From Pecten maximus (Eukaryota), in assembly GCF_902652985.1 (NCBI RefSeq), contig NC_047020.1:28768001-28832000 (forward strand): a DNA stretch of 64,000 nucleotides. The letters are read 5' to 3'. Positions 10,070 to 58,557 of the stretch are shown here, piece by piece. Position 1 is the stretch's first letter. Every line of letters begins with the position of its first letter. The translations under genes were made by a program, and so were the position numbers. The notes under the pieces are model-generated. The model saw only the letters and a program-made list of their open reading frames with translations, had not been told where the DNA came from and ran no database searches.

Positions 10070-10669
10070 TATTTATGAGTGTTGTCCTGCTAGACACTTC
10101 TAATATCCACTCTTCTATTCACTCTTTCTAAGACTTACCCGTTTTCAGGATATGATGTGAGTGTCATGCTACTTAGTCCAGGTTCAGATAGAGAGGATAC
10201 CAGGGTCTGTATATGAGCCGCCGGCTGGCATTTAGGTCCTTAAGGCATAAAAAATCAAAATTGAGTTTTTGGTATTTTCATAATCTAGAGATTATGGCGG
10301 TTAAATTGGTGTAAAAATAGCTTTGGTGTGTCAATAACTGACGATTTGACGCTACATTGAATATATGTCGCATTTGGTATGCTAGATGACGTTGGCGTTA
10401 ATAACGACGTCATTTTACCAGTGCCATTTTTGACGTCATTTTTTGCAACGTCATTTATCACAGACAGTTGCATAATGCTTTGCTGTTACAGGTCTTGAAT
10501 TGAAGACTGTTATTTTGTAATTGTTATTATATCTATAGTCATTTAAAAAGAAAAAAGTCCTTTTCAGTTGTCATGATTCATTTATTTACAAGGATAAAAT
10601 TTGTGATTCACATATCAACTTGAACACAAACATGTATCTTGCAATAAACAGGTAACATCCCTTGTAATT

Positions 10670-10947
10670 ACACACAAAAACAATCAGTCACATCCCTTAC
10701 ACACAAAAACAATCAGTCACATCCCTTACACACAAAAACAATCAGTCACATCCCTTACATACAAAAACAATCAGTCACATCCCTTACATACAAAAACAAT
10801 CAGTCACATCCCTTACATACAAAAACAATCAGTCACATCCCTTACATACAAAAACAATCAGTCACATCCCTTACCTAATACAAAAACAATCAGTCACATC
10901 CCTTACCTAATACAAAAACAATCAGTCACATCCCTTACCTAATACAA
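10670..10947. repeat. 28-31-bp tandem repeat (~9 copies) inside the transposon 3' region
   Basis: Unit acaaaaacaatcagtcacatcccttac(at/ac/ctaat). Confidence 0.92.
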
Positions 10948-11181
10948 ATAACAATCATTTTATATTTTATTTGGTAGAAACAGATTGCAAAGTGAACTCC
11001 AGGACTCCATCAGGATTATATTGTTACAATTAATTACATGTAGTGTAAGAAGATAAAACATTTATTTTGAAATTGTATTTAACTGTATCCTAACAAGCAA
11101 TGCTCATTTCATAATATAAATAAAAGCATGAGTACAGTTTTTAAGTTTTCATCAATAACAATTTTGATCTCAACTTTCAGT

Positions 11182-14100
11182 TCATTCTTCTGTGTGGGTG
11201 GGTCTAGAGGTGGGCTGTGGGACAGTGGGCAGGGGACATAGAAGGTCCTTAGAGGGATCCTTTACAAAAGGCCTGATATTTTTGTACAGGTACCATGCAC
11301 GTTCTGCGGAAAAACCTTTTGCCTCCAGTCTCACTGGCAAACCCTGTGGAATAATCTTTCCCCTCTTCACAAGCCTCACTGGCGTTGTCTCCCCGTCAAC
11401 ACCTTTTTTAACAGTAACCATTCCTGAAAGAAAGAAACAGGAATGGCATGTTGTAATTGAACTTAGTTTTGAAAGGGATACACATAAAAATCAAAAAGAA
11501 CCTGTACAAAACCATTTTATTTTTAAATCGGATAAAAATTCTGCATGCCCCGACATACCAAATACATCATTAGAATCAGACTCATAAATCTAGCGGAATT
11601 ACCCATGGAGGTAATTGATAATGAAAGCGCAGTACATTATATAAATTAAATGGATTGAAATATGTAAATATAGCAGTACATGTACCTGAAGTGGTGGAAG
11701 CAAAGTGAAAGTGATGGTATTTCCCAATACCAGGAACCGCTCTAAATACAGGCTTGAAGAATTGTTTCCAGTCTCTCCAGATCCACGAATTTGGTGACAT
11801 CTCACTGTATAAATCTGCCTGGTTATGTGTGGATGAAGCATGAATTGTCATCTTCAGGTCAGACAAACTATCCACATCATTGCGTCTGATTTTCCTTCGG
11901 GCAATACCAAACATCCCATCCACAAGACAACGGGCATGATATGGCTTCATGAAATGTAGATGGATGTCATCATGATATCCATTTGCCACTCTCCAAGCCA
12001 GATAGCTTGTGACAACCTGAATCATAAAAAAATAAAATTAGGTTCATTGTATAAAGCAGTGTAAGAACCTGTATTATTAAGTTTATTATATTACTGGCCT
12101 GCTTTCTACTAGCATGTCAAAAATAAGACACCTGTATAATAACACTATTGTGACTTCACAATTACAAAATTTTGGAGAGATGAGTGGGTATCAACATTCA
12201 ACAGCTTCAAAAATATGTAACTTATAATGTCATAATGATTATGTAATGCTGAATAATTGTTTCAGTACAAAGAAACATACAGCCTGCTCCTTATATTTGC
12301 ATAACTACCAGTTTTGTGATAAACAGAAACTTACACTGCTGACTTTTTTGAATGAATTCAGTTCAACTTGGCAAATGATCTTAACTGATGTGCCACACTC
12401 CTTTAAGGTGTTTTCTTAACTCAACAACAAATATTCCATACCTGATTCTTATTTTGGCCACCACAATTGTCTGCATTCAAGTACACAGTTTTTTCTCCTT
12501 CCCCATGGTATTCGAAGAAGTGGTGCAACATAGATACAACAGCATTGGCCGAGTGGCTCTGGGCACCATCCAGACCAATGGACTTATCCTCGCCGAACAA
12601 ATACTTTGTTTGCAGGGACCGACCATCATTGCAAATACCAAATAGATTAGCTTTATATGGTGACCTGAAAGAAAAAGCTGTACAATATCAGAGAAGCATA
12701 GTGTTCAAGATCATTTCTTTTAATTTCAATCTGATATTTTTTTATTCTGATATTCAAGATTGAAACTTTACATCTTTAATACATGAATTACATTTTATGA
12801 AATATGATCCAATACTACAGAGATTTAATGGTTTTAAATGTAACCTGTTTTACCTACTGCTTCTCCCTTTTAACAGACTTAAATTGTTTTTTACCTGAAG
12901 TACAAAGCTCCTTCCTGTCTGCAATGACTGGGCAGAAGTACACTTTGAGCATAATCAAATGTGTAGTGGACATCATTTAGGTCCATGGAAGTTGGAGGAA
13001 CAGGAACAGTAGACTTTGGATGACCCTGAAGACCTGCAATAGCAGCATGACATTTTTGTCGATAATGGTCTCTCTCCTTTTGGGCTGATGAAATGTGTTC
13101 TGCAAAGTCTGTGCTAGCCTCCATTTTATCTGCCTCAGTGATGGCCTAGATACAATATATGTACAAAAATCTTATCTTAACATGTCATCAAAATGTTCTA
13201 TATACATTGTACATACAAAATGTATATAATGAACCTATAAAAATGTATAACAAGATGTTTAAAGCAATAAAAGTTTTCTTTGTAATTTTACTAATAAATT
13301 CATACCATTATTGTTATGAATGAATATGAATGTAGAATTATTACAATATCACTATCTGTTTATCTAAAATTAGAACTCAAATATATTAAGATATTTTGGT
13401 TTTAATGTCCATGGATATTAAATTAGACTTGTTTTGATAAGGTTCTTACCTTCTGTATCCGATTCCTAAAGGATTCACATTTGTGACATACATCTGTCTT
13501 GCAGGACATGAACTGGATGTGTGGGAGACACTGGTGCCATATTCTTCTGAAAGTGGTCTCAGATAGGCATCGGTTTTCTGTTTCACTGTTGAAAATAGAT
13601 ATGTCACTAGATCATAAAATTGGAGGGTGACGATTATAAACAATACTAAAACCAAATAATTCAATGTCATTTCCAAAGTTTGAAATATATTATTTTCATT
13701 TTAACAAATAATTTGGACAAATTCTAAGATATCTAGTGATGGAAGATAATTTATTAGCAGCTTGTTTGTGTTGATAATTAAAGCATACATAGTTAAAAAA
13801 ATATTCTTATAGCTAAACCAATTTATAAAGGCATTATTTCAAATGTTTTATGATTATAAATTAAATGTATCTGTAGACAATATTTAATTCATAACAGTGA
13901 AAATTGACACTGGTTTATCATGGATTGCTGTATGAATTGATTACCAAGTACTTTTTTCATTATGAGGATAATACTTACATACATACTTGGCTGTATTTCT
14001 TATGGACAGATAGATAGGTTTCACTTCCAGGTAAATATATTGGTGGAAAGCTGTCCCGTCCACGTGGTGCAGCAGGTTGGGGCAATCCCATCTCATCTGC

Positions 14101-15329
14101 ATACCTAACATATAAATGTAACTGCATTAAAAAATAATTAACATCAAAATTCATTTCCAAATATCTCATTGTGCTGATAGTAAAATATGTATAATGGAAA
14201 TTTCGAAACAGACAAGGTCTGTATCAAACTGTGACCTATTACAATTGAATGTATGTAAATAAATAATATAGCTATTATATTTCAAAATACATGTACCCGG
14301 TATGTTTATATTTAATCAAGGTGACTTGAGATGATTTTTTTAAATTAAGTTTTGCACATGTTAAGTTAAATTACTAACAGTTGTATTATTTATTTATTTT
14401 TCCCCAGCAAAAGAGAACAAAATACAGACTGCACAGATAGTTTGATGTTAATCATGACATGCACGACAAGTATGAATATTCTACATACAGAACTATGGGT
14501 TTCATTTTTATTTTTTTTTAATGTTAAATACCTGTGTATAAGTACACATACGACACAGCACTTACCTTGAAATAAACTGGACAACTTGTTGAACATTATC
14601 ATAGGTCACTGCATTTTTGGGTTTTTTCCCTGTATTACCATGTATCCGTGGAACAGCACCATTCTTGACGAAATGGGCCCTGATGTTTTTCAAGTAATGT
14701 GCATTTATGTTATTAACATAAAGGAAACAAGCCTTGCAAACACTTGTGTTCTGGAATTGGTAGTCAAAGCGATGCCGTTTGACGTTAGTTTGACCATGTA
14801 TTCCCCTTGTCATGCCACATGCCTGGAGCTGTCCAATAATTAACATGTCCCTGCCATCTCTCTCCATTCCCTGCACATTCAATCTGTTATCTTTGATATC
14901 CATATTGGGAAATTTGGACAGACACCCCTTCTTACATTTACGCTGTGCGTCACGTTCGTCCGAGTTATTTTCGTCATCATCATCATCATCAACCTCGTTG
15001 TCATCACTACGTAGTGTGTCTTGATCAGAATCATTTTCTGTGTCCCTTTCAACGTCATTTCTGATAAAAACTCTCATCCGAGTATGCAGAATCGGCGAAT
15101 TAATAACGCTAATGCCGTTACTCACATCATCATCATCATTATCACTCTCGATGTCATAGTCAAAATCAACATCTTCATCCTGATTACCGGAGACAGAACT
15201 CACCTCTTCAGCTGTACCACTGTTTACCCGACTTGTACACGGGAAGAAATGGCTAAAATCATCGTCTATCTCACTTGCTAAATCGCTATCACATCCGACT
15301 ACGTTAAAATTTGGCGGAAGAGACATCAT
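11182..15329 (-). CDS. Sola-type DDD transposase, 7 exons, ~690 aa, no stops or frameshifts
   Basis: Exons 15329-14566, 14104-13979, 13585-13450, 13145-12895, 12664-12442, 12016-11686, 11423-11182; all GT-AG and phase-compatible, total 2073 nt. Motifs: KTDVCHKC, HYTFDYAQ, NADNCGGQNKN, YLAWRV, HARCLVDGMFG. AATAAA on the minus strand at 11061-11066. Confidence 0.88.
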
Positions 15330-17569
15330 ATACGATTTCTTGATGCGTAAGACCTAAACACTCCCATCTGCCATCTTCGTAGCGAATGTAAACAACTACG
15401 TAAATACCGGAAGTGTGTGCGGCAGAAAACGGGGAAACCCCATTCGTGTCGATATTTTTGTTGAATAAACACTTTTATTTACATTTACCGTTAATGTTAT
15501 TGAATGGAAAATTAACCGACATATCTAAAGTTTAAGGACAGGTATTTAAAATTCATCTATAACAAAGTATATCAGCTGCATTTTGTGCTTTTGCAACGCA
15601 AGTGGGATTCCCGTTTTCGCGCGAAACGGAAATAGAATGGAAATAATAACTCTGACGGAATTCCCTTTTTTCTCCGTTTTCATTGGATAGAACTTAAGGA
15701 CCTAAATGCCAGCCGGCGGCTCATATATAGACATGTCTCTCCATCGACAGACAGCTTTTACATTGTATAAAACTATTGGTACTTATCACATAAGTTACAT
15801 GCAGTTGTGGTATCAAGGTCTATTGTTATTTTGTTTGAGTGCTAATCACTTTTTATGATTCCATGACGTTTTCTTGTAGGAGATTTTCTATTATTTTCTC
15901 TATGACAAGTTGTATGGTAGTGATATCACCAAATTCCGTGATCATAAAAATGTTACCACGAGGGAGACTTTCCTCTCTCCTGAGGCCTACCTTAATTAAA
16001 CATACTAGAACGGTCATTAAATCGACAATTAAGGAAAGACCGTTATCCGGCAGTCAAGTTAATGGTAGGAATGAAGTTATGAGTATCGGATTTAAATCAT
16101 GATAACTGATTACGTTACTAAGATGATATTTAAGAACATGTATATAATGCTTAACAGTTTAGCGTTTTAATATAAAAGCATAGTTTGATAGATAATCTCT
16201 AGAGAATTAAACATGGATGAAATAAGTTAGGGTTTTTTTTTCATGGGAGAATGAGGCGGGGATCTTTCTGACCTTGCATTCTGCAATGTACTTTTACATT
16301 CGTTTTGAAGCTTTTCTTATCCATATGGACGGCTTTGATATGAGATACTCTCTTCACACGTCCCTTGGCCTGATATGAGTGTGGCACTGTCAAACTAGGG
16401 CTGGAATAACTAAATACTTGATTTGTGTATGTATTTTGTACTAAACAGTTAATGTATTCCTCCGTTCGGGATGTAAAGCTGCCTGTTGTCACTACACTAG
16501 AGGGATTCACGATAACGATAATTTGGGGTTTCTAGTCAATTTGTCACGTAACGGTGACAAGTGCGCTAAGCCTTACTTGAAATGTATTTCAGTATAAATT
16601 GTAGAAGTCACTAGTACGGAAGCCTTCAGGGACATTTTAGTAACCTTTTATTTGTCAGCATTTATTTGTTATTTGTTAGTCGTATTTGTTCAAGTGTCAT
16701 ATTAACAAATTATCAATGAAAACTATCTTGACTAAGCCCTTTAGCCTCTTACCTATGATTAATTATTTGTTTTCACTGTTTTTGTTACCGTTTATTTGTT
16801 GTTATTTATTTGCTTTTATTTATTTGTCATTATTTTATAATTACGGCAAAACTTGATAAGGCTGCCTGGAAAAAACGGACCGCTTCATCTCTAACGAAAA
16901 AGCAGAATCATTTAACTGAAATGTTACTGTTGTTCAGTTACTACGAAAGCCTCAGAGGCGAACACAGCGAGCATTTATATACAGATTTTCCAATGGGCAT
17001 TCAACATGTAGTTATTTTGATAAAACATTCAAGGGATTGATTCGGCTGTATGGTAATAAGAAGGACGACGGCCACATTGGACGGTATTATATCAGACCAA
17101 GGCGGTAGTTAAGGGGAAGTATTGATGCTGTGTCAAATTATAATGTGTTTATGTAGTAGAGTTCGCCTTGTGACATAGAATGGTATATTTCATCAGCATA
17201 TCAGAGAGACATGTTTGATTCCGAGACCTCGTGTCGCTGACGGATCAGAATGGCAGGGTTAATATAGTAACCGAGCCAGGAACTAGGACCTGTCACAACA
17301 TCCCTCACAAACTCAACTAGTTAATTAAGTTAGATGTGCATACACGCAACTCATTATTGGGGAGAATATATATTATTGCAACTGCACAATCCAATATTCT
17401 ATCGGCGCTCCAGACTCGGTATTACTAATTACCATCAGTGACAAAGCCTTAGTTTGATGGACCACAGCATCTGTTCTTATATGTAGTCGTATACATCTTT
17501 TCTGTGCCATCAAATGGTACCAAACAAAGACGTAAAGAATGAGTAACGATATAGTATACACGTACAGGT

Positions 17570-19903: not shown

Positions 19904-22470
19904 CTCTCCTTGACATCCGTCCTCATAAGACCCTGTTGGTGTCTCCTTGACATCCGTCCTCATAAGACCCTGTTGGTGTCTCCTTGACATCCATCCTCAT
20001 AAGACCCTGTTGGTGTCTCCTTGACACCCGTCCTCATATGACCCTGTTGGTGTCTCCTTGACACCCGTCCTCATAAGACCCTGTTGGTGTCTCCTTGACA
20101 TCCGTCCTCATAAGACCCTGTTGTTGTCTCCTTGACATCCGTCCTCATAAGACCCTGTTGGTGTCTCCTTGACACCCGTCCTCATATGAGGACGGGTGTC
20201 TCCTTGACATCCGTCCTCGTATGACCCTGTTGGTGTCTCCTTGACATCCGTCCTCATAAGACCCTGTTGGTATCTTCTTGACACCCGTCCTCATATGACC
20301 CTGTTGGTGTCTCCTTGACACCCGTCCTCATATGACCCTGTTGGTGTCTCCTTGACACCCCACCTCATATGACTCTGTAGGTGTCTCCTTCACACCCCAC
20401 CTCATAAGACCCTGTTGGTGTCTCCTTGTCATCCGTCCTCACAAGACCCTGTTGGTGTCTCCTTGACACCCATCCTCATATGACCCTGTTGGTGTCTCCT
20501 TGACATCCGTCCTCATAAGACCCTGTTGGTGTCTCCTTGACATCTGTCCTCATAAGACCCTGTTGGTGTGTCCTTGACACCCCACCTCATATGACCCTGT
20601 TGGTGTCTCCTTGACATCCGTCCTCATATGACCCTGTTGGTGTCTCCTTGACATCCGTCCTCATAAGACCCTGTTGGTGTCTCCTTGACATCCGTCCTCA
20701 TATGACCCTGTTGTTGTCTCCTTGACATCCGTCCTCATATGACCCTGTTGTTGTCTCCTTGACATCCGTCCTCATATGACCCTGTTGGTGTCTCCTTGAC
20801 ATCCGTCCTCATATGACCCTGTTGTTGTCTCCTTGACACCCGTCCTCATATTGCCCAGTTGGTGTCTCCTTGACACCCGTCCTCATATTGCCCAGTTGGT
20901 GTCTTCTTGACACCTTCTTCATATGGCCCAGTTGGTGTCTCCTTGACACCGTCCTCTTACGACATTGTTGGTGTCTCCTTGACATCCGTCCTCATATGAC
21001 CCTGTTGGTGTCTCCTTGACATCCGTCCTCATAAGACCCTGTTGGTGTCTCCTTGATATCCGTCCTCATAAGACCCTGTTGGTGTCTCCTTGACACCCGT
21101 CCTCATATGACCCTGTTGGTGTCTCCTTGACACCCGTCCTCACAAGACCCTGTTGGTGTCTCCTTGACACCCGTCCTCATATGACCCTGTTGGTGTCTCC
21201 TTGACATCCGTCCTCATAAGACCCTGTTGGTGTCTCCTTGACATCCGTCCTCATAAGACCCTGTTGGTGTCTCCTTGACACCCCACCTCATATGACCCTG
21301 TTGGTGTCTCCTTGACACCCCACCTCATATGACCCTGTTGGTGTCACATTGACCTCTTCCTCATATGACCCTGTTGTTGTTTCCTTGACACCTTCCTCAT
21401 ATGACCCAGTTGGTGTCTCCTTGACATCCGTCCTCATATGACCCTGTTGGTGTCTCCTTGACATCCGTCCTCATATGACCCAGTTGTTGTCTCCTTGACA
21501 TCCGTCCTCATATGACCCTGTTGTTGTCTCCTTGACATCCGTCCTCATATGACCCTGTTGTTGTCTCCTTGACATCCGTCCTCATATGACCCTGTTGTTG
21601 TCTCCTTGACACCCGTCCTCATATTGCCCAGTTGGTGTCTCCTTGACACCCGTCCTCATATTGCCCAGTTGGTGTCTCCTTGACACCTTCTTCATATGGC
21701 CCAGTTGGTGTCTCCTTGACACCGTCCTCTTACGACATTGTTGGTGTCTCCTTGACATCCGTCCTCATAAGACCCTGTTGGTGTCTCCTTGACATCCGTC
21801 CTCATAAGACCCTGTTGGTGTCTCCTTGACATCCGTCCTCATAAGACCCTGTTGGTGTCTCCTTGACACCCGTCCTCATATGACCCTGTTGGTGTCTCCT
21901 TGACACCCGTCCTCACAAGACCCTGTTGGTGTCTCCTTGACATCCGTCCTCATAAGACCCTGTTGGTGTCTCCTTGACACCCCACCTCATATGACCCTGT
22001 TGGTGTCTCCTTGACACCCCACCTCATATGACCCTGTTGGTGTCTCCTTGACACCCGTCCTCATATGACCCTGTTGGTGTCACATTGACCTCTTCCTCAT
22101 ATGACCCTGTTGTTGTTTCCTTGACATCTTCCTCATATGACCCAGTTGGTGTCTCCTTGACATCCGTCCTCATATGACCCTGTTGGTGTCTCCTTGACAT
22201 CCGTCCTCATATGACCCTGTTGTTGTCTCCTTGACATCCGTCCTCATATGACCCTGTTGTTGTCTCCTTGACACCCGTCCTCATATTGCCCAGTTGGTGT
22301 CTCCTTGACACCCGTCCTCATATTGCCCAGTTGTTGTCTCCTTGACACCGTCCTCTTACGACATTGTTGGTGTCTCCTTGACATCCGTCCTCATATGACC
22401 CTGTTGTTGTCTCCTTGACACGCGTCCTCATATTGCCCAGTTGGTGTCTCCTTGACACATGTCCTTATAA
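19904..22470 (-). repeat. 37-bp minisatellite, ~69 copies, inverted relative to 19016-19755
   Basis: Unit gtctccttgacatccgtcctcatatgaccctgttggt; variant blocks recur (ttacgacattg near 20957, 21730, 22356). Confidence 0.95.
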
Positions 22471-24156: not shown

Positions 24157-26500
24157 TGTACAACACTGATCAGACTTATCTATACAACACTGTTCAGACT
24201 TATCTTTACAACACTGTTCAGACTAATCTATACAACACTGTTCAGACTTATCTATACAACACTGTTCAGACTAATCTGTATAACACTGTTCAGACTTATC
24301 TATACAACCCTGTTCAGACTAATCCATACAACACTGTTCAGACAACTCTGTACAACACTGATCAGACTTATCTATACAACACTGTTCAGACTACTCTATA
24401 CAACACTGTTCAGACTAATCTATACAACACTGTTCAGACTTATCTATACAACACTGTTCAGACTTATCTATACAACACTGTTCAGACTTATCTATACAAC
24501 ACTGTTCAGACTTATCCATACAATACTGTTCAGACTAATCTATACAACACTGTTCAGACTTATCTATACAACACTGTTCAGACTTATCTATACAACACTG
24601 TTCAGACTTATCTATACAACACTGTTCAGACAACTCTATACAACACTGTCCAGACTAATCTACAACACTGTTCAGACTAATCCATACAACACTGTTCAGT
24701 CTAATCTATACAACACTGTTCAGACTTATCTACAACACTGTTCAGACTTATCTATACAACACTGTTCAGACAACTCTGTACAACACTGTTCAGACTAATC
24801 TACAACACTGTTCAGACTTATCTATACAACACTGTTCAGTCTAATCTATACAACACTGTTCAGACTTATCTACAACACTGTTCAGACTTATCTATACAAC
24901 ACTGTTCAGACTTATCTATACAACACTGTTCAGACTACTCTGTACAACACTGTTCAGACTAATCTGTACAACACTGTTCAGACTAATCTATACAACACTG
25001 TTCAGACTAATCTATACAACACTGTTCAGACTTATCTATACAACATTGTTCAGACTTATCTATACAACACTGTTCAGACTTATCTGTACAACACTGTTCA
25101 GACTTATCTATACAACACTGTTCAGACTTATCTATACAACACTGTTCAGACTTATCTGTACAACACTGTTCAGACTTATCCATACAACACTGTTCAGACT
25201 AATCTATACAACACTGTTCAGACTTATCTACAACACTGTTCAGACTTATCTATACAACACTGTTCAGACTTATCTATACAACACTGTTCAGACTACTCTG
25301 TACAACACTGTTCAGACTAATCTGTACAACACTGTTCAGACTAATCTGTACAACACTGTTCAGACTTATCTATACAACACTGTTCAGACTAATCTGTACA
25401 ACACTGTTCAGACTTATCTATACAACACTGTTCAGACTTATCTATACAACACTGTTCAGACTTATCTGTACAACACTGTTCAGACTTATCTATACAACAC
25501 TGTTCAGACTAATCTGTACAACACTGTTCAGACTTATCTACAACACTGTTCAGACTTATCTATACAACACTGTTCAGACTTATCTGTACAACACTGTTCA
25601 GACTTATCTATACAACACTGTTCAGACTTATCTATACAACACTGTTCAGACTTATCTATACAACACTGTTCAGACTTATCTGTACAACACTGTTCAGACT
25701 TATCTATACAACACTGTTCAGACTTATCTGTACAACACTGTTCAGACTAATCTATACAACACTGTTAAGTCTAATCTATACAACACTGTTCAGACTTATC
25801 CATACAACACTGTTCAGACTTATCCATACAACACTGTTCAGACTTATCTATACAACACTGTTCAGACTTATCTATACAACACTGTTCAGACTTATATGTA
25901 CAACACTGTTCAGACTTATCTACAACACTGTTCAGACTTATCTATACAACACTGTTCAGACTTATCTATACAACACTGTTCAGACAAATCTATACAACAC
26001 TGTTCAGACTTATCTATACAACACTGTTCAGACTTATCTATACAACACTGTTCAGACTAATCTATACAACCCTGTTCAGACTTATCTATACAACACTGTT
26101 CAGACTTATCTATACAACACTGTTCAGACTTATCTATACAACACTGTTCAGACTTATCTGTACAACACTGTTCAGACTTATCTATACAACACTGTTCAGA
26201 CTAATCTGTACAACACTGTTCAGACTAATCTATACAACACTGTTAAGTCTAATCTATACAACACTGTTCAGACTTATCTATACAACACTGTTCAGACTTA
26301 TCTATACAACACTGTTCAGACTAATCTGTACAACACTGTTAAGTCTAATCTATACAACACTGTTCAGACTTATCTATACAACACTGTTCAGACTTATCTA
26401 TACAACACTGTTCAGACTTATCTATACAACACTGTTCAGACTTATCTATACAACACTGTTCAGACAACTCTGTACAACACTGTTCAGAATAATTTGTATA
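24157..26500. repeat. 24-bp minisatellite, ~97 copies
   Basis: Unit tacaacactgttcagacttatcta with occasional 22-bp variants. Confidence 0.96.
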
Positions 26501-26849: not shown

Positions 26850-27382
26850 TATATGGTGACCTGCACACTGTATGGTTCAGTTGTCATGGTGAAAGGCGGC
26901 CTGTATGTTGACCAGTAGCCTGTACGGTTCATTTCTCCTATTGGAGGACAGCCTGTATGGTGACCTTAAGACTGTATGGTTCAGTTTTTTTTGGTGTATG
27001 GTGGCCTTTATGGTGATCTGTAGACTGTATGGTTAAGTTGTCTCTTTGAAGGGCCACCTGTATGTTGACCAGTAGCCTGTATGGTTTAGTTGTCATGGTG
27101 TAGGGTGGCCTGTATAGTGACCTGTAGGATGTATGGTTAAGTGTCCCTATTGGAGGGCAGCCTGTATGGTGACCTGTAGGATGTATGGTTCAGTGTCCCT
27201 ATTGGAGGGCAGCCTGTATGGTGACCTGTAGGATGTATGGTTCAGTGTCCCTATTGGAGGGCAGCCTGTATGGTGACCTGTAGGATGTATGGTTCAGTGT
27301 CCCTATTGGAGGGCAGCCTGTATGGTGACCTGTAGAATGTATGGTTCAGTGTCCCTATTGGAGGGCAGCCTGAATGGTGACC
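26850..27382. repeat. 52-bp tandem repeat overlapping the FAM114A2 stop codon and proximal 3' UTR, ~10 copies
   Basis: Minus-strand unit gtcaccatacaggctgccctccaatagggacactgaaccatacatcctacag; the first copy encodes VTIQAALQ*; copies diverge with distance from the gene. Confidence 0.9.
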
Positions 27383-30300
27383 TCTTGTAGACACGGCAGC
27401 AGTAACTGGAAAGCATCCTGTATGTATGTACTACTGTTTCCTGCCTGCAATACAAAGTTTGTCAGTTATTATATATCAAAATCTTTCTATACCGGGTCAA
27501 AGTTACACTCTTATACATGTAAAAGATTATATCTTGGTAATGTTGTAGTTGATACACCTATTATACATGTACTTACCTCCAGATAGATGTTGGTAACCAG
27601 AGTGTTGATGTCACTGCTATCCTCTTCACCCTCCTGATGAACATAAAGAAAAACTCTATTACTTCGACAGCTTCCAGACATTTTAACAAACCAGTGTCAG
27701 TACAATATTGTCAGTCCAGGACATACATATGGACATTCCAGTAAAGACAGACAGACAAAATTCAAAACAGGCAGACAAATGTCAGTCCTGGACAGACAGA
27801 AAACATTAATAACAAATCAACACCTCAAGCATGGAACACATCTCACATGTGTGGCCTCCAAGGCAATAAACACTGCAGATTATCCTTACAGATTATCAAT
27901 CAATGTTTGAAAGTCTCATGTGACCTGTCACCTCCAAACTAGGTCAAGGTCATTGAAGTTACATATTTACATAGCAGCATGTTTTCCTACTATGTTATGG
28001 TACAACATTAAACAAGAGGCCCAGAGGGCCTGTATCACTCACCTGGTTTATTTGAGCAAACATAAAGATAATGTTCATGTTATATTTGTTAATGTCTAAA
28101 ACAATGCTACATTGTATATGTATGAGTATGGCTTAAAGATCTCAACTGCTTCAAAGATATAACCTTGAAACGAAGTCAAGACTCAACATGATTGTGTTTA
28201 AAGAAGCCTATTAAGTCCCTTGGGGTGGGGAAAGACCCCTGGGCTTATTCTTACATCAGGCTTGTGTTCATCTCTTGATCTTAATTGTTTCAAAAATGCA
28301 AAAAGTCCTTTATAGCAATATAGTCAAATTGATCCCTTTTGCCCCGCCCTTGAGGCCCCTGGGGGATCAGCCCATCATTTGTATAACTTTAAATCCCAGC
28401 CACCTAGAGATGTTACCACTGAAATACCAATGTCATACATTGCTTAGGTCCAGAGAAGAAGTTGTTAATATCAATATTGCTAAAAGAACCACTTTTGGCC
28501 CAACCCCTCAGGCCCCTGCAGGGTCAGCCCCATCATTTGTATAAATTTGAATCCCAGGCACCTATGAATGCTACCACTGAAATATCAAAGCCATGCATTG
28601 CTTAGGTCCAGAGAAGAAGTCGTTAATATCGATATTACAAAATGGACCCCTTTTGACCCTGCCCCTCGGCCCCTGGGGAGTTAATCCAATCATATGTATA
28701 AATTTGAATCCTAGCCACCTAGGGATGCTACTGCTGAAATACCAATGTCATACATTGCTTAGGTCCAGAGAAGAAGTTGTTATTATCAATATTGCCAAAT
28801 GGACCCCTTTTGGCCCTGCCCCTCAGGCCCCTAAAGGGTCAGTCCTATCATTTGTACAAATTTGAATCCCAGCAACCTAGGGATGCTACCACTAAAATAT
28901 CAATGTCATGCATTGCTTAGGTCCAGAGAAGAAGTCGTTTATATCAATATTGCCTAATGGACCCCTTTTGGCCCTGCCCCTCGGGCCCCTAGGGGGTCAG
29001 TCCCATCATATGTAAAAATTTGAATCCCACCCACCTAGGGATGCTTCCTACCAAATTTGGTTAAATTCTGATCAGGGGTTCAGAAGAAGTCAATTGTGTT
29101 GACGGACGGATGGACGGACGGATGGACGGACGGACGGACGGACGGACGGACGGACGGACGAAGGACACCTGATGCCATGGTATGGCATAAGCTCACCTTG
29201 GTCCTTTGGACCAGGTGAGCTAAAAAAATGAATATTGTTTTATTAAGGATTTTTCAGACATGGATACTCACGGCCAGTGTGTTGAGGACAGATGTAAACT
29301 TCACGGACATAATTCCCACCTCCGTACACAAGACATTTGTCAGACTGCAAAAAATCCATTAGCATATAGTTACAATGATTCCAGCACTCTATTGAAGTGT
29401 TAGGTCCAAAATAAAAATTTGTGAATTTCTGCATTTCAAAATAATGAAGAGAATAGGGAAAGAACGAGAAAGAAACACTAAGGAAGAAAGGAAAAGGTGG
29501 AAGAGGATGGTAAGGATGATGTGGGATGAAGAAGACAAGAAAAAGAGGAAAAGACAGAAGAAAGGACGAAGAACTAAATGCAAAGTCTCACTTAGGTGTT
29601 GTACAATAAAGTCTAAATCGTATTTACATTCCCAATAATTAAGGTTAGAAATATGTTTAAAAACAAGATGTTATCAGGAGAATGATTACTCACTTAGAAA
29701 GACTGGTGGCTCTGTCTAAACACTGTTTATCAGACGGTTGGTTTAACAGAATTAGCTCCCCTGCTTTGTGAAACTGCTCCACAGACTTAGATGTCAGTTC
29801 CGCCAGTGATTGTATCGCCACCTGGTGGACAGCCTACAACAAAAGACAGACAACTTTTCCTAGAGGAGAAACAACTACCACACAAAGATACAATTTCTCT
29901 GCAATTTTTTTCAAACAACTGCGAACGTGTAGTTGAATTTGAAACAACCTTAGAATTGATACTATGAAACTGGGTAATATGGATTAATTGTTAAAGGAGT
30001 TGCATTTCATTAAATGTCAACACAAAGTACAAAGCTAACTTTGGAGATATTGAAAACTTAAACTTATGATAATATATCAATCTATATTTCATTAAAAAAT
30101 TAATTGACCTTTATAACTTATTGTCCATAAAAAAGATTTGACACCATGATTTTTTCTATTTTTCCAGTTCCGCTTTTACTTTTGGGTAAAAACTTTACAA
30201 CTCATTCTCGATAATTGTTGGAACATTTTTTTACATAATGGATATCCAAAGAACAATCACCTTGGGTTGGGCCTGCTCTTCCTCCCCTTCCTCCTTCGTG

Positions 30301-33300
30301 CAAAATTTACTAATACTTTGGCGGATTTTGTCCTGGGTCTGAAATAGATTTGATCATTCATATAATTCAGCCTTAATGTCTCTATAGAAATGAAGTTGTC
30401 TTTCTCAAGTCATTCTAATGTTATTCAGGTAACCAGCCTTTCTAAGGTCATCCTACTGTAGTTCAGCTAACCAACCTTTCTAAGGTCATCCTACTGTAGT
30501 TCAGGTGACAAACCTTTCTCAGGTCATCCTACCATAGTTCAGGTAACCAGCCTTCCTCGAGCCGTCTTACTGTACAGGTTGCAACTACTACCTGACAGAG
30601 ATCTGATAATTCTGATGTCAGCATGTTCTCACACACTTGTTCAAAACACGGACGGCAAATAAAAATTGAGAGTGTTTTACTTTGTTAATATGTGGTGAGT
30701 GCATCAATTATAAACATAACAATCTTACACTTCCATGACCATTCAAGTGAACATATTATCATAAAATTTTTACAGACTGCCAGATTTCACAGCCATGTAA
30801 TGACAGCCGTGAAAAGTAACGAGATTTAAGGTTAACATGAACATCCTAAACACTGAAAAATATTTTCAAATGTGCAGTTCTATGCTGGGTACACAGAATG
30901 TTACATTTCAATATAACAAGGAATTCTGACAATCATCCACTACACCTACAGTATATTAAAGTGGATAGAGAGTCAGAATCATTTGGAGGAGCACAGACAA
31001 ACCTTACTTACCCTGTTCAGTTTGCCTGGATCAGTACCCAGACTGAGGTTTGCCAAGTTATCAGTAACCAGCTTCACAAAATCTTGATCCTCTGGATCTT
31101 CTGGAACACATTGAACATACACCAATGAAAAGGAGGATTAATACAACAATATTATACTATAATGTCATGTAATCTAGGATTTTCTGGAACATATTGTCAT
31201 ACACCAATGAAAAGGAGGATTAATACAACAATACTATACTATAATATCATATATAATCTAACTGCTATTCTGAGAATATTCATTCTAAATATAATGTTCA
31301 AATAAAAACAAATCTACTAAAGACACATTGGACTATCAATATTACAGCAATAGTAAATCAAAATTTAAATCATTAATTGTACAAACCATCGTCATCATCC
31401 TCTTCATTTCTTTCAAACACCTGTTTGATCATGATGAGATCAGACTTTATGTCAGCGAGCGTATCAGCAGGCATGGATGTCAGTAGTGTCTGCACCTTCT
31501 TCTCACACTGATTGGCCAGGATCTCCAGAGCCTCCAAGTGGGCCAGACCTAGATATAGAAATTACAGACATAATCTCTAGTGTGTCCAAGTGGGCCAGGC
31601 CTAAATATAGAAATTAAATACAGAACATATAGTGTGTCCAAGTGGGCCAGGCCTAGATATAGAAATTACAGACAGAATCTCTAGAGTGTCCAAGTGGGCC
31701 AAGCCTAGATATAGAAATTACAGACAGAATCTCTAGAGTGTCCAAGTGGGCCAGGCCTAGATATAGAAATTACAGACAGAATCTCTAGTGTGTCTAAGTG
31801 GGCCAGGCCTAGATATAGAAATTACAGACAGAAACTCTAGTGTGACCAAGTGGGCCAGGCCTAGATATAGAAATTACAGACAATCTCTAGTGTGACCAAG
31901 TGGGCCAGGCCTAGATATAGAAATTACAGACAGAATCTCTAGAGAGTCCAAGTGGGCCAGGCCTAGATATAGAAATTACAGACAATCTCTAGTGTGACCA
32001 AGTGGGCCAGGCCTAGATATAGAAATTACAGACAGAATCTCTAGAGAGTCCAAGTGGGCCAGGCCTAGATATAGAAATGACAGACAGAATATCTAGTGTC
32101 CAAGTGGGCCAGGCCTAGATATAGAAATTACAGACAGAATCTCTAGAGTGTCTAAGTGGGCCAGGCCTAGATATAGAAATTACAGACAGAATCTCTAGAG
32201 TGTCCAAGTGGGCCAGGCCTAGATATAGAAATTACAGACAGAATCTCTAGTGTGACCAAGTGGGCCAGGCCTAGATATAGAAATTACAGACAGAATCTCT
32301 AGTGTCCAAGTGGGCCAGGCCTAGATATAGAAATTACAGACAGAATCTCTAGAGTGTCTAAGTGGGCCAGGCCTAGATATAGAAATTACAGACAGAATCT
32401 CTAGAGAGTCCAAGTGGGCCAGGCCTAGATATAGAAATTACAGACAGAATCTCTAGAGTGTCCAAGTGGGCCAGGCCTAGATATAGAAATTACAGACAGA
32501 ATCTCTAGTGTGTCTAAGTGGGCCAGGCCTAGATATAGAAATTACAGACAGAAACTCTAGTGTGACCAAGTGGGCCAGGCCTAGATATAGAAATTACAGA
32601 CAATCTCTAGTGTGACCAAGTGGGCCAGGCCTAGGTATAGAAATTACAGACAGAATCTCTAGAGAGTCCAAGTGGGCCAGGCCTAGATATAGAAATTACA
32701 GACAATCTCTAGTGTGACCAAGTGGGCCAGGCCTAGATATAGAAATTACAGACAAATCTCTAGAGAGTCCAAGTGGGCCAGGCCTAGATATAGAAATGAC
32801 AGACAGAATATCTAGTGTCCAAGTGGGCCAGGCCTAGATATAGAAATTACAGACAGAATCTCTAGAGTGTCTAAGTGGGCCAGGCCTAGATATAGAAATT
32901 ACAGACAGAATCTCTAGAGTGTCCAAGTGGGCCAGGCCTAGATATAGAAATTACAGACAGAATCTCTAGTGTGACCAAGTGGGCCAGGCCTAGATATAGA
33001 AATTACAGACAGAATCTCTAGTGTCCAAGTGGGCCAGGCCTAGATATAGAAATTACAGACAGAATCTCTAGAGTGTCTAAGTGGGCCAGGCCTAGATATA
33101 GAAATTACAGACAGAATCTCTAGAGAGTCCAAGTGGGCCAGGCCTAGATATAGAAATTACAGACAGAATCTCTAGTGTCCAAGTGGGCCAGGCCTAGATA
33201 TAGAAATTAAAGACAGAATCTCTAGAGTGTCCAAGTGGGCCAGGCCTAGATATAGAAATTACAGACAGAATCTCTAGTGTGTCCAAGTGGGCCAGGCCTA

Positions 33301-36300
33301 GATATAGAAATTACAGACAGAATATCTAGTGTGTCCAAGTGGGCCAGGCCTAGATATAGAAATTACAGACAGAATCTCTAGAGTGTCCAAGTGGGCCAGG
33401 CCTAGATATAGAAATTACAGACAGAATCTCTAGAGAGTCCAAGTGGACCAGGCCTAGATATAGAAATTATAGACAGAATCCCTAGAGTGTCCAAGTGGGC
33501 CAGGCCTAGATATAGAAATTACAGACAGAATCTCTAGTGTGTCCAAGTGGGCCAGGCCTAGATATAGAAATTACAGACAGAATCTCTAGAGTGTCCAAGT
33601 GGGCCAGGCCTAGATATAGAAATTACAGACAGAATCTCTAGAGAGTCCAAGTGGACCAGGCCTAGATATAGAAATTACAGACAGAATCTCTAGAGAGTCC
33701 AAGTGGACCAGGCCTAGATATAGAAATTATAGACAGAATCTCTAGAGTGTCAAAGTGGGCCAGGCCTAGATATAGAAATTATAGACAGAATCTCTAGAGA
33801 GTCCAAGTGGACCAGGCCTAGATATAGAAATTACAGACAGAATCTCTAGAGAGTCCAAGTGGACCAGGCCTAGATATAGAAATTATAGACAGAATCTCTA
33901 GAGTGTCCAAGTGGGCCAGGCCTAGATATAGAAATTATAAGACAGAATATCTAGAGTGTCCAAGTGGGCCAGGCCAAGATTTCAGTTTTCTGAGAAACAA
34001 AAACCAACATGGGTACTGGTACGAAGCGTTGAACCGCTCACCACGGGCTTTAATACATATAAGTAATATCTGCTTACCCTACAATTACCCATAATGTACA
34101 GCCCACGTAGTTTGTCTGTCACCGACAATACAGACTGAGTATTCTATCTTACACAAATAATAGAGACCTGACTACTAATCTGACATCTAAACAGGTACCT
34201 GAATCTCTACTGTAAAGACTGACATTTGATGTAGATGCATTTCTGTGTTTGAGTGAATTTGCAAAAATATGTGACACCAAAATTTGGCTTGTTATGATAA
34301 AAATACTTAAATAAGACCTGACAGGACTGAAAAGATACCAAGAAAGATCCACTTATTTATATGCCCTCATTTGAGAAAAATATTGAAACACCCCAATCGA
34401 TAGAATCTCTAAACTTGCCTTGATATTCATCAAACATGAACCCAAAGTGGGCCTTCCGTGCATCATCGGATTCTTTTTCCTGCTCCATACGCTTGGCTGA
34501 ATCTTCCTTAGCATCTCGCAGAATCTGGGAAAGGTTAGGCTTATCTCCCCTCTGAAACAACACTTCCTTTGTCTTGTGAAGTCCGGGGTCGTGGTCTTTG
34601 ATGACATCAAATGTCTTTTTACCAATGGTTTCCAGGACATCCAAACTGCCAGTCACCAAGGCATTACTCTGTAAAATGCAAGTAAGTATGTCACCTAATT
34701 AGAAATACCAGTATATTAATGCAAAGTACATAACGAAATAAAAAAAATCCTTTCTGGGAGATTGCACACATCTTAAATTTCATGCCTCATTTATTCATTC
34801 ATAGACCTCCTTTTAGAAACGAATATTTCAAAAAATATATTTTGGCTACTCTTTCTTGTGGGCTTATTGGAGAAAATGTGAACATCGAGGAGGTTTACAG
34901 ATGATTTATACTTGAGAATAAGGTAACAATTTGAAAGCCTCCAGAAGAGAAGGTATGGAAAGTATGACATGGGTTTTGGAGTAATGACAGTGCAGTGTCT
35001 ACTGTCATGCTATGAACACAATCACTCTCTACTGATGTGTATTTTACTTTCTGCACACTATTTACATATATATATGTCTGTAGGTTTCATTCCATTCACA
35101 AATACTCTAATTCCAAACTTAGAGCAATCATTAAAAATTAACGAGACCCTGTGACACAAACAATGGAGTAGTCTCCTAAACTTTCAACAAGAAACTGAGG
35201 GCATACTATGTGATTATTACATATATATTGTACATGTATATATTTATAATTAAAAGTAAATAATGTCCTTGTGATGGATGTACATAATAATAAAAAAAAA
35301 CATAATAAAAAAAAACATAATAAAAAACACAAACCATAAAATCACAAGCGCTTTCACATGCTTTGTATATTTATTTCTCTGAGTGTCTCATAAGCCTTTT
35401 ATAGGCTAGGTGTAAATTCTAAATTTTGATAATTCTGTATAATTATAATACGTATATATGATGTTTTATTTAAAATTGACATGTGACACTTTGATTAAAT
35501 ATATTGTATTGTATGTATTGTAATAGACATCCATCAAGATCTGTCTTTGTGAAGAGCCTATTTAAAATGATTCACAGTAATAAGCCTGTATGTATGACCG
35601 TTCACTGTTCTGTAGGGTAAGGGTCTGTTTCTACTGACCGTGTTCTGTAGGGTAATGGTCTGTTTTTACTGACCGTGTTCTGTACCATGTGAGTAGTGTT
35701 CTGTACTACAGAGGTCAAGCTGGACATCCCCCAGGATGAGAACCAGTTACTTCCAGAACCTTGGTCTCCCCCTTCAGGATTCATCACATTGTCCTCTTTC
35801 TTTTTCTCTTCTTGTTTTTCTCCTTTTTCCTTCTGATCAACCTCTTCTTGGTCTGTTAAAAAAAACGAATGATTATACTACCAGGTACAATAGTATCATA
35901 GTAATTCACTGTTAGTATCATAGTAATTCACTGTTAGTATCATAGTAATTCAACGTTAGTATTATAGTAATTCACTGTTAGTATCATAGTAATTCACTGT
36001 CAGTATCATAGCAATTCACTGTTAGTATCATAGTAAATTACTGTTAGTATCATAGAAATTCACTGTTAGTATCATAGTAATTCACTGTTAGTATAGTAAT
36101 TCACTGTTAGTATAATAGTAATTCACTGTTAGTATCATAGTAATTCACTGTTAGTATCATAGTAATTCACTGTCAGTATCATAGCAATTTACTGTTAGTA
36201 TCATAGGAATTCACTGCTAGTATCATAGTAATTCACTGTAAGTATCATAGTAATTCACTGTTAGTTTCATAGTAATTCACTGCTAGTATCATAGTAATTC

Positions 36301-39300
36301 ACTGTAAGTATCATAGTAATTCACTGTCAGTATCATAGTAATTCACTGTTGGTATCATAGTAATTCACTGTTAGTATAATAGTAATTCACTGTTGGTATC
36401 ATAGTAATTTACTGTTAATATCACAGTAATTAACTGTTAATATCATAGTAATTCACTGTTAGTATCATAGTAATTCACTGTTAGTATCATAGTAATTCAC
36501 TGTTATATAGTACATGTATCATAGTAATTCACTGTTGGTATCATAGTATTCACTGTTAGTATCATAGTAATTCAGTGTTATATAGTACATGTATCATAGT
36601 AATTCACTGTTATATAGTACATGTATCATAGTAAGTCACTGTTATATAGTACATGTATCATAGTAATTCACTGTTGGTATCATAGTATTTCACTGTTAGT
36701 ATCATAGTATTTCACTGTTAGTATCATAGTAATTCACTGTTAGTATCATAGCAATTCACTGTTAGTATCATAGTAATTCACTGTTAGTATCATAGCAATT
36801 CACTGTTAGTATCATAGCATTTCATTGTTAGTATCATAATAATTCACTGTTAGTATCATAATAATTCACTGTTAGTATCATAATAATTCACTGTTAGTAT
36901 CATAGTAATTCACTGTTAGTATCATAGAAATTCACAGTTACCCATGGCTAGAACAGACATATATTATCATAAATGTATCAGAAATCCTATATCTTACTTT
37001 CTCTGTCGATGGTGGTGTTTTCTGGGGCCTCTGATTCCTCCCGAGACTTCCTCTTCATTTCGGCCAGCTCCTCTGGTGACGGCGCCCCCATACTGGTCTC
37101 TACTGCATCCACAAGTGTATTGAACTTGTCCTCTGTCACAGAAATACATGTTCAGTATTGTCAGATATCATACAATACTAATATATATATATATATGTAA
37201 ATGTATGTGTAACTGGTAATTTCAATGTTGATTTGACCACTATTACAAGTACATATTAATATATATCATACCCAACAAAATTATAAATCAGAAAGAAAAA
37301 TGAAAAATTCATGGAAAATGACATTTACACTTTTTTCTCTAAAATCCTCCTGAGTCCTCCAATAAATAATGTTGTAAAGTAGGGATGTTCATCTAATATC
37401 CACTGTCTAATAGCCAGTTATCTCCCTTTATAGTGTTAATCCCTTTTCACTTCCAAAAAGATAATTATGATTGTTTTGAAATAATAGATACTGGTCAAAT
37501 ATAGTCTGCGGTAGAGGATATACGACCTTACTAAAAGTAACTAATTTAATGTTTGTGTTGTATATACATATACAGAGGTATATATGTATCAGTGTTGACT
37601 TTGGCAGCAAAACCTGAGTGAGTTACATGATGTTACACAAGCTCTACATACCAACATGGCCAGCTAAGGACTGGAACCAGCCACCTTTAGCCTGCTCCTC
37701 TTGGCGATCTTCTGGGTTATCTCCCTTATTTTCTGTCACAGACTTTTTATTTTCCTCCTGATCATCATGTTCTGAGTCTGCAAAGTTATTAAAAAAAACA
37801 TTATCAGTGTCATGGTTTTCTTGTATACATATCTTCTTGTCATGACAGCAAATCAGGACATATGTTATTTCAACTTATGAAACACAATCTCCTTACATAC
37901 AAAAAGAACATTCAATGAGCCTAGATAATAGCAATTGCAATTTTGTAGTTGCACATATTTTAAATCTAAATGCTTTTTCAGGAATGAATGTAAAGATACA
38001 TGTGGATGAAAAGACTGAAGTTTACATTTTCAGGAAACAGATCACTACCATATAATAATATTTTAAATGTCACTTCAATCTTTCATATCCTTAGAAACAA
38101 TTTACACCAGCATCTCATGATATATCTTACTTTCTCTGTCGATGGTGGTGTTTTCTGGGGCCTCAGATTCCTCCCGAGACTTCCTCTTCATTTCGGCGAG
38201 CTCCTCTGCTGACGGCGCCCCCATACTGGTCTCTACTGCATCCACTAGTGTATTGAACCCGCCCTCTACAAAAGTAATACTGTTAGAGGCTCTCCTGAAA
38301 ACACTAGGTCTGTAGATACACATCAAATGTACTTTGTGAAATGAAATACATTTAATGATGCTGACAAATTTTGCTGCTATCAAACATATACAAATACCTC
38401 AAACAATGTTGAAGTAGGAGACTTATAAATTACATGTATACCACATGCGTATACCTAAATATCAAAGAATAGGACTTAAGTACATTGTATTTGATACTGT
38501 ACATACCAACTTGACTGGTGAAGGTTGACACTGAATGGGACGCTACATTCATCAGAGATGATCCCCAGTTACCCCAGGCACTCCAGCCACCAGATGCAGA
38601 GGACTGCAATGTAGTAAATAATACAAACTGTTAATAATCAAGTATTTAATATCATCATCATCATCATCATTTCAAAATAATTTCCTCCTGTAATATATAC
38701 TTTCATATAAGAGATCCCAGAGGGATCTTGGCACCCACTATTTATGTAAGTATGTATTTATTGCATTGATGCAAGCTATAGATATTTTTCTTCTTTCATG
38801 GATAACAACATGTTCTAAAACTTATTCTGCTGTGTTTGAAATAATCCTTTTAAAGATAAAATCATTCAATCTATGGACTAAAACAGTGAATTGTAACATG
38901 ATGATATATCAAAATTCATAATAGATGCTAGAATATGTCTAAGCAGGCTCAAGATATGGCATGCACAGCTAGGACCAAAGCTGAATGTTTGTCTTATGTT
39001 TTAAGAACATCACTATTGTTGTTCTTGAGGAATAGCAGTAACAAACTACAAATTTCAAAATTCTAAAAGGCTGCTGGCGAGTATCTGATGAAGCTCAAGC
39101 ATGTATCGAGTAAATCTCATGTTAACAAAGACATCCATTCATTATAGCTCTTATTTAAGGAAAAGTGCCAACAAACTTGATTCATCATTCAAAATTCAAA
39201 ATGGCCACTGGAGGACATAGCAAATATATGACCTATCTCAAAAAATGATGTGAAAAACTAAATGCACAACTAAGCTCCTAAAGTTCAAGAGAATCACCAT

Positions 39301-57700: not shown

Positions 57701-58505
57701 GTCTGCTGTCTTTGCCTACCACATGCAAGATAGAGTTATCTCTTCCCTATTAACAACAGAATCATCCTATGGTCCCTTTGAAGTATGTGAGAAAATTTGA
57801 ATAAATCAATATCAGGCACCAAGAAGACTGTAAAAAGATGTAGTGAAAGCAAAACAACAAAAGTCTGAAAATATATGAAATAACAACTATGAAAGATGCA
57901 GTATACCGTCTTCCTTTCAGGATTCCTTGAGTAGAATGCTCACTTTGAGTGATTTTGGGAACTTTGAGAGGAAGCTTGCTTTTGGTGTAGTTCTTCTGAT
58001 TGAATATGTCAAACTGGCGATGTGGTGGAGACTCAAAGTTTGGACTTTCAAACAATTTGGGACAGAATGTATCCTGGCTATTGTCATTGTTCGGTGATAC
58101 CATTGGTGAACTGTAAAAGTCACTTGTGTACACAGAGTCATTTTTCTTTGGTTGACCATAAACAGGTGAAGCCTTCTGGATGGGTAAGTCCACTGTTTCA
58201 TAACCTATCAGATCACATGTTTCTTCATCAACCATAGCCCTGACATTATGTTTCTTAGGCTTCGATTTGGTGGTCCCCTTCGTCTGTTCTTTGGATGGAG
58301 TTTTGACGAGGACAGATTTTGTGTATGACAATTTTGCCTCCTGTTTCAGTCTGTTCCAGCTCTCCTTAACCTTGCGGCTGATCTGTACTGGGGAGAGGAA
58401 GGGGTAGCGGGACCGGAGCAGTACTTTTTGCTCCTGTTCATACATACGATAACTGACCTTTTGCTGTACCATATATTCATCTTGTCCATCACTATCCCCA
58501 AACAT
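51751..58505 (-). CDS. Uncharacterised protein with N-terminal HMG-box-like domain, GILK and RVSF motifs and a long low-complexity region; 5 coding exons, ~785 aa
   Basis: Exons 58505-57907, 56828-55316, 54820-54728, 53239-53163, 51826-51751 (2358 nt, GT-AG, phases consistent). HMG-like YRMYEQEQKVLLRSRYPFLSPVQISRKVKESWNRLKQEAKLSY; 30-bp coding repeat NSQSNDSAHG x~4 at 56070-56190; ends FSQLFKTKDIFY*. Confidence 0.78.
51985..52300 (-). mobile_element. Truncated 5' part of the same HINE-like family as 28010-29227
   Basis: ccaggtgagcgatacaggcctcttgttt (~52273-52300) and tttaaacacaatcatgttg (~52076-52094) are reverse complements of the 5' region of the 28010 element. Confidence 0.7.
52388..52672 (-). 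mobile_element. tRNA-derived SINE with CORE-like centre
   Basis: Minus strand: tRNA-like head (ctcagtcggtaagagcgccggcc...ggtttgatgc), gtgtccctgggcaagacactttac CORE-like motif, 3' tail aaatgacccttgctgtt. Confidence 0.7.
53681..53894 (-). mobile_element. Full-length tRNA-derived V-domain-like SINE with 11-bp target duplication
   Basis: A/B boxes, V-like centre, (AAAC)-type tail; aactgttgctg at both 53670-53680 and 53895-53905. Confidence 0.9.
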
Positions 58506-58557
58506 CTTGAAGAAATTGTTCAGTTATCAGAAGTACCTGAAAAAGAATACACAGACA

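Follow-up and report, generated by a model that had tools for sequence, protein, structure and literature searches.

Anatomy of the element

The window analysed here (the whole stretch of 64,000 nucleotides from Pecten maximus, positions 28,768,001 to 28,832,000 of NC_047020.1) contains, at positions 10215-15722, a 5508-bp transposable element with a spliced gene on the minus strand. The first-pass annotation of this DNA reported perfect 30-bp terminal inverted repeats (TIRs) and an intact ATAT target site duplication (TSD), and both are present: the repeats at 10215-10244 and 15693-15722 match in inverted orientation at 30 of 30 positions, with the similarity ending inside the element, and ATAT occupies positions 10211-10214 and 15723-15726. 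A longer TIR or a 6-bp duplication, which the near-palindromic flank could suggest, was rejected, the limits of 30 bp and 4 bp being set by other copies. A 25-mer of the TIR finds 24 exact matches in the genome, compared to none for the reversed control, so that these ends are not due to chance.

Splice joints were sought in contigs from 8 of 24 listed sequencing runs, namely five RNA-like runs from five studies and three DNA runs. Among the RNA-like runs, X19 is on record as RNA, whereas X5, X13 and X18 are guessed to be RNA; X16, labelled “DNA?” and “organism B”, is grouped with them and counted as RNA because five splice joints are seen in it. The features of the locus are as follows.

10211..10214, no strand: left target site duplication, ATAT (sequence; the empty-site joint 10210 to 15723 skips 5512 nucleotides, i.e., the element plus 4)
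10215..10244, no strand: 30-bp TIR at the 3' end of the gene, starting with GAG (sequence and other copies)
10581..10586, minus strand: AATAAA, candidate poly(A) signal past the tandem array (sequence)
10668..10957, no strand: 29-bp minisatellite past the stop codon, with about 10 units and likely in the 3' UTR (repeat analysis)
11182..11423, minus strand: exon 7, codons 611-690 and stop (intron 6 joint in X19 and X16)
11686..12016, minus strand: exon 6, codons 501-611, with the PYH loop and the third Asp, D533, at 11920-11918 (intron 5 joint in 5 of 5 RNA-like runs)
12442..12664, minus strand: exon 5, codons 426-500, with DNCGGQNKN and the second Asp, D491, at 12471-12469 (intron 4 joint in 3 of 5)
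12895..13145, minus strand: exon 4, codons 343-426, with FDYAQ and the first Asp, D406, at 12956-12954 (intron 3 joint in 5 of 5)
13450..13585, minus strand: exon 3, codons 297-342, with the conserved DxCxxC (intron 2 joint in 4 of 5)
13979..14104, minus strand: exon 2, codons 255-297 (intron 1 joint in 1 of 5, X13)
14566..15329, minus strand: coding part of exon 1, codons 1-255, an acidic N-terminus followed by a Cys-rich region with a putative role in DNA binding (ORF model)
15326..15374, minus strand: two short upstream ORFs, of 6 codons from 15374 and of 13 codons from 15367 (sequence)
15693..15722, no strand: 30-bp TIR at the 5' end of the gene (sequence and other copies)
15723..15726, no strand: right target site duplication, ATAT (sequence)

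The uninterrupted seven-exon reading frame of about 690 amino acids proposed in the first-pass annotation is confirmed: all six introns (461, 393, 304, 230, 425 and 262 bp, from 1 to 6) are of the GT-AG type, and the 690-aa product, which contains no stop, is letter-identical to RefSeq XP_033743305.1, “uncharacterized protein LOC117329463” of Pecten maximus. The final exon model agrees with both the RNA joints and the RefSeq protein; an alternative model, in which 14121 is the acceptor and exon 3 starts at 13546, is open, but puts exon 2 in the wrong frame. Translation from the ATG at 15374, which would give the window copy a premature stop, was rejected because this stop is found in 7 of 7 full-length copies and the relatives begin at MMSLP; a relative from Argopecten can be aligned to the transposase from residue 1 on. 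The 6-codon upstream ORF that starts at this ATG is kept in all 7 full-length copies, and the stop codon of the 13-codon ORF overlaps the main ATG. A location of the element between the coding exons of FAM114A2 was also rejected, given that these exons span 40556-27358, far from the element.

Downstream of the stop codon, AATAAA occurs three times (at 11066, 10971 and 10586). The poly(A) signal claimed earlier thus has candidates, but it is the weakest item of the anatomy because such hexamers are common in DNA with 65% AT, and contigs cannot assign usage. The minisatellite between the gene and the 3' TIR, which is absent from the first-pass annotation, varies in number of units from 4 to 87 across 12 copies.

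All six junctions are joined across the five RNA-like runs, with the joints of introns 1 to 6 seen in 1, 4, 5, 3, 5 and 2 runs, respectively; for intron 6, loose contig ends in the three remaining runs match the next exon. None of the six is found among the joint rows listed for the three DNA runs, which argues for splicing as opposed to an intron-less DNA copy. Intron 1, spliced only in X13, is the least supported, and unspliced contigs are common. From the reading of the sequence, retention of intron 1 would bring an immediate in-frame stop and a 255-aa product devoid of the catalytic core. One may speculate that the upstream ORFs and the poor splicing of intron 1 hold transposase output down. 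Where the window copy has a private base, the RNA contigs carry that of its siblings, and expression is therefore assigned to the family rather than to the window copy.

Predicted catalytic core and fold of the transposase

A search of representative proteins identifies 4249 relatives of the 690-aa product at E<=0.001. In the alignment, which consists of 99 of the 155 fetched proteins (those of at least 380 aa), conservation reaches 98% for each of D406, D491 and D533, as counted in the 89-97 homologues that extend over these positions; DxCxxC, H359 and NCxxQNKN are conserved as well. A search of PDB by sequence finds no solved relative (best E 0.41). An AlphaFold2 model of exons 2-7 of the sibling copy P0001, built from a 90-row alignment, has a pLDDT of 92.6, compared to 38.6 for a single-sequence structure prediction, and gives the three aspartates the positions that they have in DDE/D cores: on strand 1, where strand 4 ends, and where the next helix begins. 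In structure, the protein is matched best by IstA, TnsB, retroviral integrases, Mos1, Metnase and Sleeping Beauty, with scores (Foldseek E of 5e-5; Z of 9-10 for the top matches and of 8-10 over 125-230 residues overall) that are moderate and informative on the fold class only. Mos1, Sleeping Beauty, IS21 IstA, TnsB and the retroviral integrases have the RNase H-like core in common with the scallop protein, but only 10-15% identity to it. These observations are best compatible with a DDD RNase H-like transposase, the trait expected of the Sola superfamily, with D406, D491 and D533 as the predicted catalytic residues.

The only Pfam family matched is DUF7869 (PF25273), over the catalytic core. 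This family, for which Pfam gives no function, is matched by 90 of the 90 aligned homologues, and coincides here with the Sola1 catalytic region. A full-text literature search for the name DUF7869 found no paper, and an ESM Atlas search returned DUF7869 clusters and no Sola name.

The scallop family has a PYH loop at a position where 92% of the nearest homologues have a glycine before the histidine (the usual xGH). The same loop is found in relatives from Tegillarca and Argopecten. The possibility that PYH is a disabling mutation was rejected: it occurs in 9 of the 47 rows of a tree, built by a quick method from homologues without Sola group labels, and these rows do not form one clade.

Copies, target sites and insertion polymorphism

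A DNA search of the genome yields at least 106 matches. Seven of these are full-length copies at different loci, at 97-100% identity and 0.07-1.15% apart in pairwise comparison, in support of a multi-copy family and of the young age proposed in the first-pass annotation; many more copies are interrupted or decayed, down to about 70% identity. The ORF is intact in 4 of the 7 full-length copies (the window copy, L002, L003 and L004), whereas L005 and L006 have a common nonsense codon at 361 and L007 contains frameshifts. Because L005 and L006, which carry the same nonsense codon, lie on different contigs and differ at only 4 of 5433 sites (the 0.07% pair), they suggest that a defective copy was moved recently in trans by intact copies. 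The flanks of the 10 two-ended copies show no BLAST match to each other. Among the coding changes between copies, 17 of 40 are synonymous, compared to 23.5% expected (p=0.006), a point in favour of the best explanation given below. On the other side, the density of variable sites is similar in exons (40/2073) and introns (44/2075), from which it follows that selection among copies is weak. As a separate observation, transposon copies are recorded as host genes, with 18 named members in one cluster.

The TSDs are equal on both sides in 9 of the 10 two-ended copies (ATAT in 8, ATTT in 1); in L004 they are unmatched, ATAT on one side and AATT on the other. A duplication of 4 bp, as is characteristic of the Sola superfamily, is thus found in these copies and in the empty allele described below, which skips the element plus 4 nucleotides. 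The two bases outside the TSD are a purine and then a pyrimidine (RY) at 24 of 26 ends, compared to a background of 25% in the window (binomial p=6e-13, with both ends of a copy counted where present and some ends lacking a partner); the 26 ends include three from L070 and L071 and omit L054 as a likely duplicate of L053. This bias points to a preferred 8-bp target, RY-AWWT-RY.

An empty-site allele, one of the checks proposed in the first-pass annotation, is present in DNA run X4, where a contig joins 10210 to 15723 and leaves the exact empty site with one ATAT. This joint may represent either the ancestral allele or precise excision. In run X16, an element end continues into sequence with one match in the assembly, at C14:16901464; this match directly follows a lone ATAT, and the assembly has no element there, so that X16 holds a non-reference insertion. 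Run X19 contains a second candidate flank of this kind, with no exact match in the assembly. The family is therefore insertion-polymorphic, although polymorphic insertions can be compatible with old age in a large population.

Given the spliced transcripts and the empty allele, the family is likely to be still able to jump. The earlier description of a potentially active autonomous element is fair for the family, but is unsupported for the window copy. The latter differs from the family majority at 22 positions, 17 of them private substitutions, whereas L002 and L004 are the closest to the majority, with 9-11 differences. The private changes include N446K and Q453K, both in the catalytic domain, and position 446 is N in 75% of the homologues; private alleles of the window copy are found, among other positions, at 12585, 12595, 12604 and 14637. 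Together with the sibling alleles in the RNA contigs, these differences give substance to the idea, which we rate at slightly below an even chance, that the window copy is a silent or crippled passenger, for which siblings such as L002 or L004 supply the transposase. Against it, the ORF, the splice sites, the triad and both TIRs of the window copy are intact, and the lack of its alleles in RNA might reflect rare variants lost from contigs or sampled animals without the window insertion. At the family level, a passenger role of this copy is compatible with the best explanation given below.

It is also conceivable, although we consider it unlikely, that the family jumped recently and is now extinct, such that the intact ORFs and the empty alleles are remnants still awaiting decay or fixation. 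The ORF-intact copies are never identical (the closest pair differs at 10 of 5502 sites), and there are many decayed copies at 77-97% identity, in line with such a history; the perfect TIRs, the 0.07% pair, the spliced transcripts in runs of five studies and the non-reference insertion favour a family that can still move.

Assignment to Sola1 and implications

Termini of the form 5'-GRG characterise Sola2, and Sola3 makes a TTAA duplication. The latter is found in 0 of the 10 two-ended copies, whereas the element does start with GAG, the reason why the first-pass annotation had hinted at Sola2. In a curated bivalve library, however, GRG starts 1 of 8 Sola1 entries and only 2 of 14 Sola2 entries (PMC10294476), so that this triplet does not separate the groups. 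An AWWT target duplication is described as a hallmark of Sola1 (PMC3845634), and is reported also for some amoebozoan Sola2 elements (PMC3627910); the ATAT and ATTT of 9 of the 10 two-ended copies are of this type, which is not exclusive to Sola1. A by-eye comparison, without a score, to states 82-124 of the 124 states of the Sola1 profile RNase_H_Sola1.hmm shows that the protein fits: the profile segment ilysDncagqNkn aligns with YLNADNCGGQNKN in the scallop protein, and IelkflepgHs(k) aligns with IHLHFMKPYHA, the fuller stretch being IHLHFMKPYHAR (PMC5751038 supplement). By comparison, the Sola2 alignment of Bao and Jurka, with 14 proteins, features DF[AS]EN, SDGxxxQYKN and FATSHGKxxCDG (PMC3627910 supplement 2), and none of these three motifs, taken from part 1 of the 2 parts of the alignment, is present in the scallop protein. 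Thus, by its motifs the element belongs to Sola1 and not to Sola2: the hint from the GRG ends is largely refuted, and a Sola2 element, for which the GAG start and the amoebozoan AWWT duplications could be cited, is highly improbable. A domesticated host gene, as the RefSeq model of a protein-coding LOC117329463 with six introns might imply, is practically out of the question because the empty-site joint exists, and the TIRs, the TSD and the dispersed near-identical copies point in the same direction.

The assignment to the Sola superfamily itself is borne out by the catalytic motifs, the 4-bp TSD, the TIRs and the fold. None of the outcomes named beforehand as speaking against the first-pass reading (grouping of the protein with another superfamily, unspliced junctions, or a single-copy, fixed and syntenic locus) occurred. 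The scallop family and the Sola1 group have in common the DNCxGQNKN and IxLxFxxxxH motifs, three aspartates, AWWT and short TIRs (PMC5751038, PMC3845634). The scallop family differs by its six introns, by PYH where the Sola1 profile has a glycine before the histidine (PMC5751038), and by the added RY on either side of AWWT, which was not found stated in the literature covered here.

The curated bivalve library contains 8 Sola1 and 14 Sola2 families, and its Sola1 families have a mean length of 5445 bp, close to the 5508 bp of the scallop element (PMC10294476). Judged by headers and first bases, P. maximus is not a source of any of the 22 Sola entries of supplement file 24, and the scallop TIR 15-mer is absent from the text of this file, where the sequences are partial. 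A sister family in the same genome, L066 (5361 bp, AATT duplication), matches the element at 19 of 30 TIR positions, and its protein is 63% identical over residues 340-617; by eye, positions 12-28 of its TIR are exactly those of Sola1_A.kagoshimensis_21 (PMC10294476). The introns of the element family lie at codons 255, 297, 343, 426, 500 and 611, and all six positions are also breaks in the L067 family. L066 has introns at 255, 311, 343 and 611 only; in L072, a distant family, residues 142-374 are uninterrupted and breaks come near 385, 440 and 512. Transposase families of CACTA elements are known to vary in their intron structure (PMC4158355), and the sister families of this one genome provide material on intron turnover in transposase genes.

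The best explanation of these data, which we hold with high confidence, is that the window contains one ORF-intact member of a Sola1 family that is young and multi-copy, and that the spliced 690-aa transposase of this family likely excises the element at the 30-bp TIRs and inserts it at RY-AWWT-RY, leaving a 4-bp duplication. Its directly observed parts are the ends, the duplications, the copy family, the splicing of family transcripts and the filled and empty alleles. In the proposed mechanism, the transposase would bind both TIRs, probably via its N-terminal half, which is rich in Cys, and the helical domain that precedes the core, and, as the DDE/D class predicts, would cut the element out at the TIRs; the excised element would then be joined to an AT-rich RY-AWWT-RY site, with the 4-nt stagger filled by repair. 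Intact copies would mobilise defective copies in trans.

The P element restricts the splicing of one of its introns by tissue. A more elaborate proposal, which we regard as rather improbable at present, is that the scallop family is a currently jumping Sola1 on a distinct PYH-loop branch, with an 8-bp alternating purine-pyrimidine target, RY-AWWT-RY, and self-limited by the upstream ORFs and tissue-restricted splicing of intron 1. If true, it would offer a ready system for the biochemistry and structure of Sola transposases and possibly a native means of gene transfer in bivalves.

Given that Sola1 is already catalogued in bivalves, the kind of element is known. A search for Sola together with transposition assays found no paper, in a literature that mostly leaves subscription journals uncovered, and a human-cell survey of 130 DNA transposons may include Sola. 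The scallop case gives Pfam DUF7869 a likely function. The four ORF-intact copies, RNA junctions, exact ends, target preference and segregating insertions are what an excision and integration assay needs, and the family is a good substrate for testing the transposition of Sola1, an element group with a little-studied enzyme.

Variant copies and transcripts of the transposase gene

A joint linking 12014 to 12893 in runs X13 and X18, presumably RNA sequencing runs, leaves out exon 5, the site of the second conserved aspartate, and would put the reading frame out. The only displayed contig with this joint carries many mismatches to the window, so that it probably represents the transcript of an older, diverged copy of the element that is still transcribed.

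In a copy on contig G000:C13 (L068), exon 1 of the transposase gene is interrupted by a 1057-bp foldback (palindromic) element (L068:6664-7717), which has CAC at its ends and a 7-bp duplication. Since GT...AG occurs within the duplicated bases, the insert might be removed by splicing, resembling a new intron. In another copy, L004 (G000:C5:14360933-14366532), the ORF is intact, yet the duplications do not match (ATAT/AATT); the mismatch may stem from a mutation, from copies having recombined, or from a join made in the assembly.

The genome also contains a second young Sola1 family (L066:2950-8310, L065, L073), with copies that are 97-99% alike, an AATT duplication and four introns. Compared exon by exon with an Argopecten irradians protein, this family shows 65-94% identity.

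Motifs upstream of the transposase gene

15374-15415, minus strand: CTTCCGG, TGTTTACATT and AAGATGGC, upstream of the transposase gene

We take motifs of these types to be putative ETS- and YY1-like promoter elements. In the curated bivalve entry Sola1_S.grandis_34 (PMC10294476), CTTCCGG and TGTTTACATT are likewise found near the 5' end.

Minisatellites and other features of the window

19905-22457: minisatellite array, 37-bp unit
24159-26488: minisatellite array, 24-bp unit
27358-40556, minus strand: FAM114A2-like gene, exon block duplicated (38314-38129 and 37151-36996)
31533-33980: minisatellite array, 52-bp unit
35891-36940: minisatellite array, 22-bp unit
55247-58523, minus strand: long open frame
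60108-61448, plus strand: long open frame

One of the two open frames has a weak HMG-box match, and the other matches Hemingway/CFAP97. All four arrays are large. Inside the element lies a 29-bp repeat (10668-10957; also in copies L069, L070 and L071), with 4 to 87 units across 12 copies. Of 200 exact matches to this repeat in the genome, the first 100 listed lie without exception within copies of the element, which therefore appears to be carrying a minisatellite of its own and expanding it.
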